A stretch of DNA of 64,000 bases. Source: an uncultured Verrucomicrobiae bacterium (GTDB lineage: Bacteria; Verrucomicrobiota; Verrucomicrobiia; Limisphaerales; JAFGQR01). Position numbers: made by a program. Below, piece after piece: positions 34,301 through 43,300 of this stretch. The DNA is taken from contig CAWBHS010000039.1 in the NCBI GenBank assembly GCA_963788655.1, positions 32,001 to 96,000 of the forward strand. Reading direction: 5' to 3'. Numbering within the stretch: the first letter of the stretch is position 1; each line of letters starts with the position of its first letter.

Positions 34301-37300
34301 TTTGACTATGTCGTGACGGTTTGTGGCCATGCCAATGAGCATTGCCCCATTTTTCCCGGTCAGACCCAAGTCGTGCATGTGGGGTTTGACGATCCGCCAA
34401 CGCTCACCAAAGCCATGCCGGATGGGGAGGAAAAGCTGACAGTCTATCGGCGCGTGCGAGATGAAATCCGGCGGTTTGTGGAGACTTTGCCGGAATCATT
34501 GGAGCGCCAAACTTGAAAGGTAATCATGGATATGAATTCAGAAATCGTGCGTGAAAAAGTTCGCGAGGGTTACGGTCAGATTGCCCGGAGCAACAGTTCG
34601 TGCTGCAACTCCGGATTAAGTTGCTGCGGTTCTGCCCCAGCAGAGGCGGAGAAACTCGCCCAACACATCGGCTATTCGTTGGAAGAATTGTCGGCATTGC
34701 CGGACGGCGCCAATATGGGCCTTTCGTGCGGCAACCCGAATGCACTGGCTGCGCTCCAGCTCGGCGAAGTGGTGTTAGACCTGGGCGCGGGGGGCGGATT
34801 CGATGTGTTTATTGCCGGCCAGAAAGTGGGCGCGAGCGGCCGAGCCATCGGAGTGGATATGACGCCGGACATGTTGGCCAAGGCGCGGAAGAACATTGCT
34901 GCCTATCGCGATCGCACGGGGCTGAACAACGTCGAATTCCGGTTGGGCGAAATTGAGCACCTGCCCGTGGCCGATGCCAGTGTGGACGTGGTCATTTCGA
35001 ATTGCGTGATCAATCTCTCGCCCGACAAACCCCAGATCTGGCGTGAAATCGCTCGCGTGCTCAAGCCGGGCGGGCGGGTTGCCGTGTCTGACCTGGCTCT
35101 GCTCCGGCCGCTGCCGCCCGAGATCGTGGAGATGGTCGAAGCGTTGGTCGGCTGTGTGGCGGGAGCGGCGCTGGTATCCGATACCGAGCGCATGGTTCGG
35201 GAAGCGGGCCTGGATGAAATCGTTCCTACAGCCAAGTCAGGCTACGTGGATCAAATGGTGGATAGCCAGGATCCGCTGTACCAGAAGATCATTGCCCACT
35301 TGCCGGCAGGAACCAAACCGGGGGACTACATCACCAGCCTGGAAGTGACTGCCCGAAAACCTCAATCGTCGAATTCGCATGAACCAAACCGCTGCTGTTG
35401 CTCTTGATTCTTCCCTCGCGCCGCCAAAGCGTCTCGACTTCTTCGAGCGTTACCTGACCGCTGTGGGTTTTGCTCTGCATGGTGGTCGGCGTGGCGTTCG
35501 GAAAGCTGTTGCCCGGACGTCACCGCGGCGTTGAGCAAACTGGAATTCGGCCAGGGCTCGCAGGTCAACGTGCCCATCGCGCGTGCTGATCTGGCTGATG
35601 ATTTACCCGATGATGCTCAAGGTGGATTTCAGCGCCATCGGCGGCATCGCGCGGAAGCCCAAGGGATTGATGGTGACGCTGTTCGTCAACTGGCTGGTCA
35701 AGCCGTTCAGCATGGCGTTGCTGGCCTGGGTGTTCATGCAGCATGTGTTTGCCGCGTGGATCGACCCGGAGACGGCCAGGAATTACACCGCCGGCCTGAT
35801 CATCCTCGCCGCCGCGCCCTGCACCGCGATGGTGTTTGTCTGGTCCTATCTGACCGATGGCGATCCGGTTTATACGCTGGTGCAGGTGGCGGTGAACGAC
35901 CTCATCATGCTGGTCGCCTTCGCGCCCATCGTGATGTTCCTGTGCGGCGTGGCCAACGTGGTGGTGCCGTCCAAGGTGCTGATCACTTCCGTGGTGGTGT
36001 TCATCGTCATTCCGCTGGCGGCGGGTTGGCTGACACGCACGCTGCTCTTGAAGTCGCACGGCAAGGAATGGTTCGAGCAGAACTTCCTGCCGAAGTTCCA
36101 TCCGGTGACGATCTTGGCGCTGCTGCTGACGCTGGTGCTGATCTTCGCGTTTCAGGCGGAGAACCTGACCACGCGCTGGCTGGCGGTGCTGTTGCTGGCG
36201 GTGCCGATCATCATCCAGGTCTATTTCAACTCCGTCGCTCGCCTACCTGCTGATGCGCTGGTTCAAAGTGCCGCACAACGTCGCGTCGCCCGGCGCGCTC
36301 ATCGGCGCGAGCAATTTCTTTGAACTGGCCGTGGCCGTGGCCATCACGTTGTTCGGTCCGGGATCGGGCGCCGCGCTGGCGACGGTGGTTGGCGTGCTGG
36401 TGGAAGTGCCGGTGATGCTCTCGGTCTGCCGAATCTGTAATCGATCGCGCACTTGGTACCAGGGCAGTCTTGGCGACGGAAGCATGACCAATGATCAATG
36501 ACCAAGCCCATCCTACTGTCTCATCGGTAAGTGTTGGCGCGACAGCGTTTTGGAGTGCGGCAGTCCCCTGCCGCTTTCGATGGGTAGCCGGGCGTTCGAC
36601 AGCGGCAGAGGACTGCCGCACTCCAAAACCTGATACGGTTGCTTGGGTAGTCCCTTCCGCAAACGAGCCGAAGCTGATGTTCCGACGAGCCTTCCCCACG
36701 TTCCCCGATTCCGAATACCAAACTTCAGGGGAAGGCGGTTCGCTGTCCTGCCAAAGCGCGCTTGAGAAAACTTGCGACCAGGCGGCCATGGTGGTGATTT
36801 CATTTGGCCTTCGCGTCCTTCAATGGAAAGACTTGACAAAATTAGCCATTTAGCGAAATGTATTTGCCAATGGCTATTAAACCATCGATTACTCCGTCAC
36901 AATTCAAGGCGCAGGCGCAAGTGTTCAAGGCCCTCGCGCACCCGGGGCGTTTGCTCATGGTGGACGAGTTGTCGCGCGGGGAACGGTGCGTGTGCGAACT
37001 CGCCAAACTGGTCGGCTCGGAGATGCCGACCGTGTCGCGGCATTTGGCCCAACTCAAACACGCCGGAATCGTCGAGGACGAGAAACGCGGGGCCCAGGTT
37101 TTTTACCGGCTGGTCACGCCGTGCGTTATGAATTTCTTTCAGTGTGTCTCGTCGGTGCGGGACAAGTCATCCCAGTAAGCGAACGCGGATGCCGGTGCTA
37201 TTTTTTTGACTTTGAAATTATCTAATTGGCTAAATGTCGAATAAGCTTAGTGTCGAGTTGCGATGAATGAGGCGTGTGAAATAAATGGCTCGAACCCGAA

Positions 37301-40300: not shown

Positions 40301-43300
40301 GTTGACCCCGGAACAGATTGCCAAGGCGTGCAAGCTGGGGGAGTGCAAGTAACCAACTACAACCAGTCGAACTAAGGCGCGTATGAACATCAACAGCATT
40401 GGATTCATCGGGGGCGGACGGGTAACTCGCATCTTGCTCCGCGGTTTCAAAACGGCGGGAGTCAATCTGCCCAGGGTGGTCGTCAGCGACACCAATCCGG
40501 AAGCGCTGGACGCGGTGCGGGCCATTGCCCCAAACGTCCAATCAGCCGGAGCGGACAACGCGCAGGCCGCGGCGCAGGATCTGGTTTTCTTAGCGTTGCA
40601 CCCGCCGGCCATTGGCGGTGTGGCGCCGACCATTAAGCCGGCCCTCCGTCCTGAGGCGGTGCTGGTGTCGTTGGCGCCCAAATTCACCATGGCAAAGTTG
40701 AGTGAATTGCTGGGCGGCTTTTCCCGGCTGGCGCGGATGATTCCCAACGCGCCGTCGATCATCGGTGCAGGATACAATCCCCTGGCGTGCGGCGCCGGGC
40801 TGAATGCGACCGACAAACAAGCGCTGACCAGCTTTCTGGCGCCGCTGGGCGAATGCCCCGAGGTGGCCGAATCGAAACTGGAAGGCTACGCATTGCTGAC
40901 CGCTATGGGGCCGACGTACCTGTGGTTCCAATTGCAGACCTTGCGCAAACTGGCGCTGGAATTTGGTTTGGATGACGCGGAGGTCACGCCGGCGCTCAAG
41001 CGCACGGTCTGTGGTTCCGCGCGAACGCTGCTCGACTCGGGATTGTCGCCGGCTGACGTGATGGACTTGATTCCGGTAAAACCGTTGGCCGAGGATGAAC
41101 CAGGCATCACCCAAGCCTACCGACTCCGGCTCACCGCATTGTTCCAGAAGCTTAAGGCGTGACGCGTGAAGAGCGTAACGTGATTGCATGGAACGTCTGT
41201 TCACCGGACTAACTCACGCAGTCGAAGGCACCCCGGCCATCGCGCTGGGCGCGGCGTTGGTGTGGGGTGTCCTGAGCATTGTGTTGAGTCCATGCCATCT
41301 CTCCAGCATTCCCCTCATTGTTGGTTTCATCAGCGGACAAGGCCGCACGACGACGCGCCGGGCGTTTACCGTAGCCACGCTGTTTGCAATTGGCATCCTG
41401 GTTACCATTGCGGCAGTCGGGGCCATTACGGCTGCCGCCGGCCGCATGATGGGTGACGTGGGCCAGTGGGGGAATTACCTCGTGGCAGGCATCTTTTTCG
41501 TCGTCGGCCTTTATCTGCTCGACGTGGTTCCGTTGCCCTGGTCGGGACCGGGTCAGGTGAACATGAAGGGGCGAGGAATGCTCGCGGCGTTCCTGCTGGG
41601 GCTCCTATTCGGCATCGCGGTGGGTCCCTGCACGTTTGTGTACATGGCGCCGATGCTGGGGGTGACTTTCAAACTGGCTGGCACCCAGGCGCTTTACAGC
41701 GCGTTACTGCTGCTGGCTTATGGCGTGGGCCATTGCGCCGTGATTGTCATGGCGGGGACATTCACCGAGATGGTGCAGCGTTACCTCGATTGGAACGAGC
41801 AATCCCGAGGCATCAAAATTCTGAAAGGCCGTATGTGGCGTGCTGGTGCTGGCCGGCGGGGTTTACCTGATTTACACGGCGCCGTGACGCACGACCGTGT
41901 CATGGCTTGCCCTTGTTCGCGCCAGCGTTTGGAGTGCGTCCGGCTTGCGGGCGCTTTCGTGTGGAGACGAGCACGCAAAGGCGTGTTTGCCTTGCATTTG
42001 ACTTTGCGCGTCCTCCCGCAATACGAAAGCGGGAGCAAGCTCCACGCACTCCAAACGCTTCGCGAGTTTCAACGCCCCCGCCCATGACACAGGTGAACAC
42101 CTTCGAAGGAACCTTGTGCATCCTACGCGCGCCGAGCACCGGTAGGACAGGGCGTCCCGCCTGTCCCGCGTTTCCGGAGAACGTTCACTTTCTCAGAGAA
42201 CGAACACTCGTTGATCCATGATCACCTCTTGGCCATTCGGGACAGCCGGGACGGCTGTCCTACGTTGGCTGATGGTTGTAAGCATAATCCTTGAGCGCGG
42301 TAACGTTGTCGGGCGGAGTGCCGCGCGGGATTTCGCAGCCAGCACCGACAATGTACCGCGGCCCCGCCTGGCGATGGCATTCGGCAATCGCTTGGCTGAC
42401 GGTTTCCGGAGTGCCGTCGCGTATGATGGTGACGGGATTAATGTTGCCCAGGATGATTTGATCCGAGCCCATTTTGGCGCGGCCTTCGTGGACTGGCGCC
42501 AAATAGTCCAAGTCCACAATCTCGCAATTCAGCTTGCCCATGCCTTCAAGGATCTTGCGGGTGTTGCCGCAGATGTGCAGCCGCACGCGCGTGCCCATCG
42601 CGTGCAGGCCATCGACCAGCTTCTTTTCGTAAGGCCACACGAATTCCTCGTAGAGTTGCGGGCCGATCAGTGAGGCGGCGGCGTCGCCCACGCCCATAAC
42701 GTCGATGCCCGCTTCGACTTGGGCGCGTGCGAAACGCAATTCCATTTCGACGGCGAACTCGAACAGGTCCCGCACAAAGGCCGGATCATCGAAAAAATCC
42801 AGCATCACCGTGTTGATGCCGCGCAGATCGGCGGCTTCGGCAATGGGCCCTTCAATCCAGCCTTCCACGATTTTCTCCTGTCCAACCTTCTCGCGCAGCA
42901 GCGCAATGGCCTTGACGCCGTTGTGCATGCGTCCACCGCCAAGCGGATCAGGGATTTTGAGGTGGGCCAATTTCGTTTTGTCCGCCAACAGGGCCTGGTC
43001 TTCGAGCAGCGCCGCCGGTTGGTTGTCGAAGAATTGAACCTTGGCGCCGCAGTCAGCCGCTTCCCGCGCCGGATCGGACATGGTGTTGACGTAATCGAAT
43101 CCGAAGTCTTCGGCGACGCGTAATTGACCGTTGGCCAACACGCGATAATTGGTGCAATAATCCCGGTAACGGGCGCCGATCCGGTCGGCGGCAAACATCA
43201 TCGTGATCGGCATCAACGGCAGGTGGTCCACCGCCTGGGCTGACAGGTGGGCCAGCACCCGCTCGCGACTGGTCACGGTTTGACCTCCTCCACGGTCAAT

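Follow-up and report, generated by a model that had tools for sequence, protein, structure and literature searches.

An exported thioredoxin fused to NosL-fold and MerB-fold domains in a verrucomicrobial arsenic gene cluster, and its possible role as a CcdA-fed thiol protein for trivalent arsenicals

The gene g02256 encodes a 428-aa protein that probably handles arsenic outside the cytoplasm. It lies in a 64,000-nucleotide stretch of contig CAWBHS010000039.1 from an uncultured Verrucomicrobiae bacterium (the window, to which all coordinates refer). Our tentative reading, which we place slightly short of an even chance, is that g02256 is a periplasmic thiol protein that is fed by CcdA and binds trivalent arsenicals or hands them off. 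A literature search found no paper describing a Trx-NosL-MerB fusion protein.

Results

Gene order in the arsenic cluster

ORF analysis with Pfam and NCBIfam confirmed the unit arsR-ArsP_1-ArsE-g02256-g02257-ccdA at 36858-42087 on the plus strand, as an earlier note had described it. The unit opens with arsR2 (36858-37178, +), an ArsR/SmtB repressor (Pfam HTH_5, E 1.8e-14; NCBIfam NF033788, 90 bits, cut-off 55) whose sequence carries a C-V-C motif within the DNA-binding region. It is followed by a 445-aa ArsP_1-family permease (37263-38600, +; Pfam PF03773, 240.9 bits) with a C-S-C motif; the nearest NCBIfam models of this permease were the SO_0444 and SaoE equivalogs, both scoring below cut-off. 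The third gene encodes an 87-aa ArsE/MTH895-type small thioredoxin with a CAKC motif (38737-39000, +; NCBIfam TIGR00412, 103.5 bits, cut-off 62; Pfam Thioredoxin_3, E 7e-26), which has no signal peptide and is therefore expected in the cytoplasm. Then come g02256 itself (39066-40352, +; Pfam MerB and Thioredoxin) and g02257 (40383-41162, +), a P5CR-like NAD(P)-binding oxidoreductase (Pfam F420_oxidored, E 5e-11; TIGR00112, 96.5 bits, below its cut-off of 196.75).

The last gene, ccdA (DsbD_TM; Pfam, 40.5 bits, cut-off 27.1), starts at 41188 on the plus strand. Three-frame translation revealed a +1 frameshift near 41829 that carries the ORF as read to 42087 (299 aa). In the shifted frame it ends at 41889, which matches the 232-aa orthologs, the length of most of the 72 orthologs. 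Two further DsbD_TM genes lie elsewhere in the genome, and given these the operon ccdA is a dedicated CcdA. A REP-like palindrome (41924-42059, no strand; 37-nt arms, 84% complementary) sits directly past the true ccdA stop, and another (36547-36629, no strand; 34-nt arms, 94% complementary) lies between acr3 and arsR2.

The arsenic context was also borne out. An arsR-arsC-arsM-acr3 operon (33726-36480, +) stands directly upstream, consisting of an arsR ORF with a CVC motif (33726-34091, +), an LMWP-type arsC (34067-34516, +; ORF, Pfam LMWPc), an arsM-like methyltransferase gene (34526-35407, +; ORF, Pfam Methyltransf_31) and an acr3 with a broken reading frame (about 35424-36480, +; Pfam SBF), whose two frames join near 36233-36238 according to tblastn with an Acr3 ortholog.

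Synteny across related loci

A genome scan gave 408 stretches and 369 relatives, and the best 80 were kept for neighbour counts; the last two totals were identical to those given before. Searching the best 80 of the 369 loci by tblastn with the window's own proteins, we detected CcdA in 76, ArsE in 72, ArsR in 59, ArsP in 55, Acr3 in 31, ArsM in 27, ArsC in 24 and the P5CR-like gene in 22. The first two counts agree with the earlier note, and the ArsR, ArsP, Acr3, ArsM and ArsC counts compare with its values of 56, 51, 29, 26 and 23. ArsD was present in 5 of the best 80 loci. Nearly all loci lacking CcdA or ArsE do so at contig ends; of the 47 loci that span 12 kb or more, all 47 contain ArsE, 46 CcdA, 45 ArsR and 41 ArsP. 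ArsE, g02256 and CcdA thus form a near-obligate triad, from which a cytoplasm-to-periplasm electron relay is the natural inference. Acr3, ArsM or ArsC occurred in 42 of the best 80 loci and in 29 of the 47 long ones. Since ArsP_1 and ArsR are broad families, arsenic specificity rests on such neighbours.

With its 22 occurrences, g02257 is an accessory gene. In most other loci the P5CR-like gene is 5' of g02256; in the window it lies 3'. Related loci further contain a Tat-exported flavoprotein (37 loci), exported ArsF-type CxxC proteins (16 loci), MacB/HlyD genes on the same strand (10-14 loci) and, in some, a separate thioredoxin gene just upstream. Twelve Planctomycetota loci encode a second exported protein, ~320 aa long, with a C-terminal thioredoxin domain. 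The Tat-exported flavoprotein and the ArsF-type proteins, like the NosL-fold domain formed by the middle 120 residues of g02256, go beyond the earlier description. The module is rare: among 401 genomes sampled from the phylum, 6 carry it.

Domain architecture of g02256

To judge from its model, g02256 is a secreted or membrane-anchored protein in which a signal or anchor is followed by thioredoxin, NosL-fold and MerB-fold domains and a CxxxxC tail. The AlphaFold model, built from 45 sequences, reached pLDDT 89.8 and pTM 0.75, with pLDDT falling to 69 in the last block. Residues 1-34 (39066-39167, +) correspond to a signal peptide or signal anchor, modelled as a helix at 3-34 followed by a disordered linker at 36-51. 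A hydrophobic N-terminal segment is present in all 65 orthologs, and the short orthologs (~400 aa) carry AXA-type signal peptides, which upholds the view that the protein is exported.

Both domains named previously, thioredoxin and MerB-fold, were recovered. The thioredoxin domain (residues 51-144; 39216-39497, +) contains C66-I-P-C69 and a cis-Pro I-P-T motif. Pfam Thioredoxin matched residues 56-132 (E 4e-12), phmmer against PDB thioredoxins gave E values down to 4e-13, and VIA-align gave Z scores up to 14.4 against thioredoxins and 13.5 against periplasmic TrxP (3hxs). The NosL-fold domain (residues 163-278; 39552-39899, +) holds the tetrad C169, C172, C194 and C198 and aligned with NosL 7og7_A at Z 11.1 and rmsd 2.5 over 109 residues (VIA-align). 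It stayed under the Pfam NosL cut-off of 24 with 18.1 bits, and the Trx-less relatives P0134, P0153, P0163, P0174, P0180 and P0205 scored 24-53 bits. The MerB-fold domain (residues 282-419; 39909-40322, +) contains C283, C286, C309, C310, C313 and C374. Pfam MerB matched residues 298-407 (E 1.9e-20, 73.5 bits, cut-off 27), and VIA-align gave Z 12.4 against MerB2 5c17_A and 11.1 against MerB 3f2g_A. The best Foldseek match of the model in the PDB was again 5c17 (E 5.8e-9, 175 columns, TM 0.48 on target). The NCBIfam MerB equivalogs scored 31.9 and 27.9 bits on g02256, far under their cut-offs of 200 and 193. The C-terminal tail with the stop codon (40323-40352, +) contains the invariant C422-x4-C427.

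Conserved cysteines and the MerB active site

Cysteine conservation was assessed in the window protein and 65 full-length orthologs (n = 66). Fourteen cysteines had been called invariant; 12 of them (66, 69, 169, 172, 283, 286, 309, 310, 313, 374, 422 and 427) are Cys in 66/66 sequences, and C194 and C198 in 65/66. Aligning the middle and C-terminal domains with hhalign gave P 0.0023 over 70 columns and paired C169 with C283, C172 with C286, C194 with C309, and C198 with C313. Judged by this alignment, the NosL-fold and MerB-fold halves are tandem duplicates, each with a full treble-clef CxxC...Cx3C tetrad. Passages of PMC4999995 derive the NosL/MerB fold from duplicated TRASH zinc fingers and place the catalytic residues of MerB at old metal-ligand positions.

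In a phmmer alignment of g02256 with 5c17, C310 fell on the active-site Cys, C374 on the second Cys, and C313 on a Ser that occupies the Asp position. The position of the catalytic Asp of MerB is Cys313 in 66/66 sequences of the g02256 family and Asp in the MerB-like representatives. The residues at this site would give g02256 a pocket made of cysteines only, which would suit a soft metalloid. It may also be that C313 and C309, together with C283 and C286, do no more than ligate a structural zinc ion, and only C310 and C374 would then be free.

Discussion

The reading we favour can be set out as a series of steps. The appearance of a trivalent arsenical would cause the CVC-motif ArsR repressor to open the operon, and the ArsP_1 permease and the neighbouring Acr3 would, by family, move trivalent arsenicals into the periplasm. 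Known relays of the kind TrxA-CcdA/DsbD-ResA/CcmG/TlpA, taken with the synteny, suggest that the dedicated CcdA relays reducing equivalents from cytoplasmic ArsE to the exported thioredoxin domain, which would hold the 12 downstream cysteines as thiols. C310, C313 and C374 with the adjacent C309, at the positions of MerB C96, D99 and C159, could then form an all-thiolate pocket for As(III), MAs(III) or another soft metalloid of this kind; the pair C422/C427 at the C-terminus may, speculatively, serve as a swinging arm. The bound metalloid would be sequestered or passed to another system, such as the MacB/HlyD pumps of some loci. Fusion of a thioredoxin to its client is typical of disulfide-turnover enzymes, as in the Trx-MsrA-MsrB protein PilB; this speaks against a static binder, and a reductase fits it better. 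The Tat flavoprotein and the ArsF-type CxxC proteins hint that actual chemistry takes place in the periplasm instead of sequestration.

Such a periplasmic reductase, in which the MerB-like cysteine cluster would use ArsC-like chemistry on a pentavalent arsenical (arsenate, methylarsonate, trimethylarsine oxide or similar) to reduce it, seems unlikely to us, though it is the likeliest of the alternatives. One disulfide would form per turnover and be recycled via the fused thioredoxin, CcdA and ArsE, a layout shared with exported Trx-MsrA/B enzymes; three converging cysteines could run a cascade like that of Trx-coupled ArsC, which also proceeds over three cysteines, and related loci supply further exported redox proteins. 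However, g02256 resembles none of the known arsenate reductase folds, and the NosL/MerB fold is associated with binding metals rather than with oxyanion chemistry. A cytoplasmic ArsC is already encoded in the upstream operon and near g02256 in 24 of the best 80 loci, and reducing arsenate externally would bring no obvious benefit and an open-ended drain on reductant. We think it improbable that the thioredoxin domain is instead the working part, re-reducing or de-arsenylating periplasmic dithiol proteins attacked by trivalent arsenicals, such as cytochrome c maturation factors. Both cysteine tetrads would then be structural zinc sites, in keeping with their match to the treble-clef zinc-finger pattern (PMC4999995), and the NosL and MerB domains would only dock clients; the extra upstream thioredoxin genes and the second exported thioredoxin-domain protein of Planctomycetota also fit. 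But a plain exported thioredoxin would suffice for such repair, and C310, C374 and C422/C427 are invariant though outside the tetrads, so the metal domains appear to be more than a scaffold.

We consider it very unlikely that the module is meant for a different soft metal (Hg, Cu, Cd, Sb or Bi) and only travels with ars genes, although NosL is a copper chaperone, MerB binds mercury, the permease's nearest models include the Cu/Zn efflux family SO_0444 and SaoE, and ArsR/SmtB regulators sense many metals. Against it stand the Acr3, ArsM, ArsC and ArsD genes of the best 80 loci, and the two ArsR proteins encoded here have the CVC motif, which is typical of As(III)-sensing ArsR. The genome contained no MerA above cut-off (best 367.9 against 454.45), and no second MerB-family gene was found in it. 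The lyase suggested by the earlier note, in which an oxygen-independent MerB-like pocket cleaves the C-As (or C-Sb, C-Hg, C-Sn or C-Pb) bond of a thiol-bound trivalent organoarsenical with Cys313 as proton donor in place of Asp99, fared poorly once the catalytic residues were mapped, and we now hold it to be a long shot. It draws on the MerB fold and Pfam membership, the conservation of both metal-binding cysteines of MerB, and ArsM close by in 27 of the best 80 loci. ArsP-family permeases export trivalent organoarsenicals, and a search of module-carrying genomes turned up no ArsI or ArsH in 5 of 5, a figure for carriers only with no background rate. Passages of the Haft preprint indicate that MerB-family proteins accept other metals. 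Yet the catalytic Asp is missing throughout the family, and its scores for the MerB and SaoL equivalogs fall far short of cut-off. The intact ancestral zinc-finger cysteines point to metal binding. Breaking a C-As bond by simple protonolysis is unfavourable chemically, and protonolysis is not redox chemistry, so the fused thioredoxin and dedicated CcdA would be explained only as thiol upkeep.

Comparison with MerB fits the thiol-protein reading. The Asp of MerB is reportedly indispensable, and the Ser variants bind metals differently; because Cys313 replaces this Asp, g02256 would not be a canonical lyase. By hmmalign of representatives, ~42 MerB-like sequences share [MLW]-C-A-[IV]-D-A-L-G without knuckle cysteines, whereas the g02256 family and its Trx-less sisters combine a CxxC knuckle with the motif C-C-x-x-C-A-[LM]-G. 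The zinc-knuckle cysteines of the ancestor were lost in MerB but all kept in the g02256 family, and we propose that, unlike the canonical MerB lyase, g02256 may act as a self-reducing periplasmic metallochaperone or scavenger.

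Domain architecture of g02256

We modelled g02256, the 428-aa exported protein of the arsenic island, with AlphaFold from 45 sequences (pLDDT 89.8, pTM 0.75). The model showed a helix at residues 3-34 and a disordered linker at residues 36-51, followed by three folded domains, which were compared with about 48,000 chains using VIA-align. Residues 51-144 matched thioredoxins (Z up to 14.4, about 90 residues aligned), with periplasmic TrxP (3hxs) at Z 13.5 over 92 residues. Residues 163-278 matched the copper chaperone NosL (7og7_A; Z 11.1, rmsd 2.5, 109 residues), residues 282-419 matched MerB2 (5c17_A; Z 12.4, 124 residues), and residues 294-420 matched MerB (3f2g_A; Z 11.1, 120 residues). 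The structure 5c17, which the earlier note had named as the best fold match, was again at the top in Foldseek (E 5.8e-9). Both the thioredoxin and the MerB-fold domains of that description were recovered by Pfam and VIA-align, while the NosL-like middle domain had been missed.

In the Pfam search, Thioredoxin scored 46.5 bits against a cut-off of 23.5 (residues 56-132), MerB (PF03243) scored 73.5 bits against 27 (residues 298-407, E 1.9e-20), and NosL (PF05573) scored 18.1 bits, under its cut-off of 24. The thioredoxin domain is TrxA-like: its C66-I-P-C69 motif and its I-P-T cis-Pro loop align to PDB thioredoxins, with 30-36% identity to solved structures. Relatives lacking the thioredoxin domain (247-308 aa; library representatives P0134, P0153, P0163, P0174, P0180, and P0205) scored 24-53 bits with Pfam NosL in their first half; in their second half most scored 36-66 bits with MerB, P0134 reached 25.7 bits, under the cut-off, and P0205 gave no MerB match. 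An N-terminal hydrophobic segment was present in all 65 full-length orthologs of g02256, and in short orthologs of about 400 aa, AXA signal peptides run directly into the thioredoxin domain.

A sister family without thioredoxin (P0153, P0161, P0163, P0174, and P0180) was also observed, consisting of exported NosL-plus-MerB proteins of 247-289 aa with CxxC, CCPHC-like, and CC/CH motifs in both domains. The metagenome scan gave 11 loci of this sister family, two of them full-length, and their neighbours (integrase, Cas10, MacB, and amidohydrolase) were uninformative.

Cysteine pattern and the MerB active site

We aligned g02256 with its 65 full-length orthologs, here called the Trx-NosL-MerB family. 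The earlier note had listed 14 invariant cysteines; 12 of these were present in 66/66 sequences, and the other two in 65/66. When the middle domain was compared with the C-terminal domain by hhalign, the two aligned over 70 columns (P 0.0023), pairing C169 with C283, C172 with C286, C194 with C309, H197 with H312, and C198 with C313; the NosL-fold and MerB-fold domains of g02256 are therefore tandem duplicates. Each duplicate has a CxxC knuckle, a beta-hairpin, and a Cx3C motif at the start of a helix, in accord with the secondary structure of the model, and this layout is, judged from sequence, the TRASH/treble-clef pattern. In the available portion of Kaur and Subramanian (PMC4999995), the NosL/MerB fold is proposed to have arisen by duplication of TRASH fingers and loss of their zinc binding, with the catalytic residues of MerB at former metal-ligand positions. 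g02256 is predicted to be a NosL/MerB fold in which both ligand sets are still complete.

A phmmer search of the PDB with the non-thioredoxin part of g02256 returned 5c17 as the only match (E 2e-10). In this alignment, C310 and C374 correspond to the first and second active-site cysteines, and C313 corresponds to the serine that MerB2 has in place of the catalytic Asp. The positions matched by C310, C313, and C374 are those that we take to be C96, D99, and C159 in the numbering of E. coli MerB. Library representatives were also aligned to a profile of the g02256 C-terminal domain. About 42 MerB-like sequences showed [MLW]-C-A-[IV]-D-A-L-G, with no residues aligned at the knuckle positions and Cys throughout the C374 column; the Trx-NosL-MerB family and its thioredoxin-less sisters showed C-C-x-x-C-A-[LM]-G plus the CxxC knuckle. 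The position of the catalytic Asp is thus Cys313 in 66/66 family sequences, Asp in the MerB-like representatives, and Ser in MerB2. These alignments indicate that two of the residues defining MerB are present, and that in every family sequence a Cys stands in place of the proton-donor Asp. Homology to the Hg-bound structure predicts that C310, C313, and C374 point towards a common centre, with C309, C283, and C286 nearby. C422-x4-C427 lies on a C-terminal tail of lower model confidence. Against the NCBIfam MerB equivalogs, g02256 scored 31.9 bits where 200 is required (NF033555) and 27.9 bits where 193 is required (NF009710), and no MerA was found above the cut-off in the window's genome (86% complete).

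Gene organization of the arsenic island

All six genes of the unit lie on the plus strand, with intergenic gaps of 25-136 nt: arsR (36858-37178; HTH_5/ArsR), an ArsP_1 permease gene (37263-38600; Pfam ArsP_1, 240.9 bits), a gene for an 87-aa thioredoxin of the ArsE/MTH895 type (38737-39000; TIGR00412, 103.5 bits against a cut-off of 62), g02256 (39066-40352), the F420_oxidored/P5CR-like gene g02257 (40383-41162), and ccdA (41188-42087 as an ORF; DsbD_TM). Pfam and NCBIfam confirmed the family previously named for each of them. The coordinates count along the window; at 4858-10087, where a reading as contig positions would put the unit, the ORFs are unrelated. A canonical arsR-arsC(LMWP)-arsM-acr3 operon lies directly upstream of this second arsR unit, so the name arsenic island, used in the earlier note, is a fair one.

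The unit from arsR to ccdA is bracketed exactly by two related REP-like palindromes (36547-36629 and 41924-42059) with arms of 34 nt and 37 nt and a core, TTGGAGTGCG, common to both; these could be terminators, insulators, or cassette-boundary marks. A scan for promoter-like and terminator-like sites was uninformative, with 0 of the former and 8 of the latter against 6.9 expected. The 136-nt gap between arsP and arsE also holds a tandem repeat (38605-38657) with a period of about 14 nt and at least three GGATGCCGGATGC-like copies.

A +1 frameshift was observed in ccdA near 41829 (region 41788-41889). The last CcdA helix is restored in the shifted frame only: there, the last 20 codons resemble the final helix of the orthologs, the stop falls at 41889, and the product is 232 aa, the length of most of the 72 orthologs. 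The tail of the annotated 299-aa product extends into the REP-like palindrome. The frameshift is either an assembly indel or a genuine lesion. acr3 (35424-36480) is likewise broken across reading frames, with ortholog residues 11-279 and 281-361 aligning in different frames (junction near 36233-36238); the alignment is also disturbed near the N-terminus. Elsewhere in the same genome, matches broken over several frames suggest indel errors in the assembly.

Recurrence of the module and a proposed electron relay

The species-genome scan gave the same figures as before (408 stretches, 369 relatives, 80 kept), and the module was detected in 369 species genomes of Verrucomicrobiota, Planctomycetota, Hydrogenedentota, and other groups. 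Among the best 80 of these 369, the taxon labels were Verrucomicrobiota (31 loci), Planctomycetota (30), Hydrogenedentota (3), Nitrospiraceae (2), Omnitrophota (2), and Armatimonadota, Aegiribacteria, Bathyarchaeia, and Bifidobacteriaceae (1 each), with 8 loci lacking a phylum label. Some of these labels look unreliable (L001 and L062): the Bifidobacteriaceae label, on a 3-kb contig, is probably a binning error, and at the sole archaeal (Bathyarchaeia) locus, the neighbours are 58-70% identical to their bacterial counterparts.

We searched the best 80 of the 369 relatives by tblastn with the window's own proteins, and counted the 47 loci of at least 12 kb as a subset. ArsE was found in 72/80 loci and in 47/47 of the long ones, CcdA in 76/80 and 46/47, ArsR in 59/80 and 45/47, ArsP in 55/80 and 41/47, and the P5CR-like protein in 22/80 and 13/47. 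Acr3, ArsM, and ArsC occurred in 31, 27, and 24 of the 80 loci, respectively, and at least one of the three in 42/80 and 29/47. Nearly all of the loci without ArsE or CcdA among these 80 are interrupted there by a contig end, and ArsE, g02256, and CcdA therefore form a near-obligate triad. In five loci (L020, L024, L028, L031, and L032), a 2-4 kb insert separates arsE from the Trx-NosL-MerB gene and encodes glycine-cleavage-H-like, DGC-domain, and OsmC-like proteins and a PF04060 Fe-S motif protein.

The module is rare, occurring in 6 of 401 sampled genomes of the window's phylum (genome G000 counted). In a 50%-identity library of 1.84 billion proteins, the non-thioredoxin part of g02256 matched 126 representatives at E <= 1e-3 and 26 at E <= 1e-30. 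No longer fused form of 750-2140 aa was found at E <= 1e-5 among 4023 candidates, which is weak evidence. Public records name proteins of the g02256 type only as 'thioredoxin 1' or 'thioredoxin fold domain-containing protein'.

ArsE carries a CAKC motif and no signal peptide. The local CcdA matched DsbD_TM with 40.5 bits against 27.1 and has the Pro-Cys motifs S-P-C-H and G-P-C-T. Two further DsbD_TM genes, with products of 530 and 741 aa, are present in the genome, so the local ccdA is a dedicated extra copy. In known relays, electrons pass from TrxA through CcdA/DsbD to ResA, CcmG, or TlpA. From this analogy and from synteny in 46-47 of the 47 long loci, we infer electron transfer from ArsE to the exported thioredoxin domain, which would run through CcdA and continue to the downstream cysteines.

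Neighbouring genes in related loci

To describe the neighbours of the module, ORFs of 90 aa or more that lie on the same strand within 5 kb, outside the ten query proteins, were collected from the best 80 of the 369 loci, and the resulting 427 ORFs were clustered and scanned. FMN_red flavodoxin-like proteins were found in 37 of these 80 loci (L002, L006, L014, and 34 others; for example, L006:8136-8813). A twin-arginine motif precedes the flavin-binding loop in 37 of the 38 FMN_red ORFs, the one exception being truncated by a contig end, indicating that these neighbours are Tat-exported flavoproteins; their genes adjoin the Trx-NosL-MerB gene and ccdA. Their identification as ArsH was ruled out, as they gave no TIGR02690 match and just weak WrbA-like matches.

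ArsF-family proteins were found in 16 of the 80 loci (L011:4249-4695, L038:1482-1946, and 14 others), with 102-107 bits against a cut-off of 60 (NF040494), and all have a signal or lipoprotein-like N-terminus and a thioredoxin-like CxxC. The same 80 loci contained DGC-domain proteins near the module (21 loci), components of HlyD and MacB pumps (10-14 loci), another exported protein, about 320 aa long, carrying a thioredoxin domain in its C-terminal part (12 loci, all Planctomycetota), and ArsD (5 loci). Neither the Tat flavoprotein nor ArsF (NF040494) was found with these queries in the window's own genome (86% complete). The neighbours suggest that in arsenic loci the CcdA conduit may supply several periplasmic redox proteins together.

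Discussion

In this study, we describe a conserved and previously unstudied module that is built of known parts, namely the NosL/MerB fold, a thioredoxin, and a CcdA relay, and in which the cysteine architecture of g02256 is unusual and evolutionarily informative. The reading that we favour, while giving it a little under an even chance, is that g02256 is a thiol protein of the periplasm, supplied by CcdA, in which the MerB-derived pocket now consists of cysteines alone and would accommodate a soft metalloid. In an oxidising compartment, this site would be held in the reduced state by the fused thioredoxin. The logic would be that of TlpA-ScoI or ScsB-ScsC, yet in one chain and in an arsenic context.

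A thiol-cascade reductase for pentavalent arsenicals would use the same cysteines differently. Exported Trx-MsrAB enzymes are known to carry a fused thioredoxin as well, and the available part of Castillo and Saier 2010 (PMC2963123) proposes an arsenate-reductase role; these two points make the reductase a serious rival, which we nevertheless judge unlikely. For the C-As lyase proposed in the earlier note, the MerB fold and both metal-binding cysteines stood, but the catalytic Asp is missing (Cys313 in 66/66) and the zinc-finger ligands are intact, which leaves it without its main support. An organometalloid lyase survives as a minority reading, rather improbable in our view, because a Cys could act as proton donor and because neither ArsI nor ArsH was found in 5/5 module-carrying genomes searched, an absence that carries little weight since the background rate was not measured.

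We see only a slim chance that the MerB-like domain is a true oxygen-independent periplasmic organometalloid lyase, in which Cys313 would serve as proton donor and the CcdA-fed thioredoxin would reset the site; if so, it would fill a gap, providing an anaerobic way to demethylate or de-arylate trivalent organoarsenicals once ArsP has exported them. It is also rather doubtful that g02256 is a repair thioredoxin with its zinc-finger domains used for docking, and a soft metal other than arsenic as the substrate seems very improbable.

To our knowledge, all known arsenic detoxification chemistry (ArsC, ArsM, ArsH, and ArsI) is cytoplasmic. The module would spend cytoplasmic reductant on an extracytoplasmic Cys-rich protein. 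This points to a step of arsenic handling in the periplasm that has so far gone unrecognised and that probably matters under low oxygen. ArsE (cytoplasmic thioredoxin), ArsF (exported CxxC, labelled a nitroreductase subunit in NCBIfam), and ArsG (DsbD_TM) may belong to a transmembrane thiol relay, and the published roles of ArsEFG may deserve re-examination. Moreover, g02256 retains the complete zinc-finger Cys sets that are thought to be lost in MerB and NosL (PMC4999995, available portion), and so resembles an extant intermediate on the path from a metal-binding finger to an enzyme.

Comparison with known systems

Our literature search turned up nothing on a protein that combines thioredoxin, NosL, and MerB domains, or on a periplasmic arsenic protein supplied by CcdA, though papers beyond the searched collection are possible. 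The 2010 precedent cited in the earlier note was borne out: the trio of CcdA, thioredoxin, and ArsE-type protein is reported from 8 ars operons in 7 organisms (Castillo and Saier 2010, PMC2963123). The available part of that paper envisages a plain thioredoxin feeding cytoplasmic ArsC and doubts a transmembrane role, and it does not describe NosL/MerB domains, export, the Cys pattern, or a periplasmic role.

Compared with MerB (PF03243; 3f2g, and MerB2 5c17), g02256 has a similar core fold (Z 11.1-12.4) and keeps both metal-binding cysteines and the A-L-G that follows the first. In contrast, the Asp99 position is Cys in g02256, which also keeps the knuckle CxxC and one extra Cys; the MerB N-terminal region is unmatched, the structural alignments beginning at chain residues 78-81. 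MerB is cytoplasmic and occurs in a mer context with MerA, whereas g02256 is exported, fused to thioredoxin and NosL-like domains, and placed in an ars context. NosL (PF05573; 7og7) shares its fold with the middle domain of g02256, and both are extracytoplasmic; g02256 differs in its four-Cys tetrad, its thioredoxin and MerB-like fusion, and the lack of a nos cluster nearby.

In gene content, the closest published system is SAO, which in the available text of the Haft and Gwadz preprint (10.1101/2022.07.06.499078) comprises MerB-like SaoL, ArsP-family efflux protein SaoE, and the small thioredoxin-like SaoT. The window unit has the same three families, including an ArsP-family permease with a CSC motif. 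SaoL carries extra cysteines or selenocysteines at its metal site, which resembles the extra-Cys site of g02256, but it is described there as a cytosolic selenoprotein of about 213 aa with a CU motif. SAO has an uptake ABC transporter and no CcdA, a term absent from the available text. Against the SAO models, g02256 scored 17.2 bits where SaoL (NF040728) requires 140, and the local permease 105 where SaoE requires 325.

The ArsEFG system of Shewanella putrefaciens, reportedly the subject of work by Chen, Zhang, and Rosen in 2019, has in common with the window unit the ArsE-family thioredoxin and the DsbD_TM superfamily (ArsG). The local CcdA scored 45.3 bits against 200 for the ArsG equivalog (NF040495), and ArsF was not found in the window's genome (86% complete) but is present at 16 of the best 80 related loci. 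We know of no Trx-NosL-MerB protein in ArsEFG. In CcdA/DsbD-fed exported thioredoxins such as ResA/CcmG, TlpA-ScoI, ScsBC, and PilB Trx-MsrAB, a membrane thiol conduit feeds an exported thioredoxin, which maintains cysteines in the thiol state in a partner that binds metal or is catalytic. The window unit differs from these in three ways: thioredoxin and client, the latter with the NosL/MerB fold, form one chain; the operon itself encodes the predicted cytoplasmic donor, ArsE; and the setting is arsenic.
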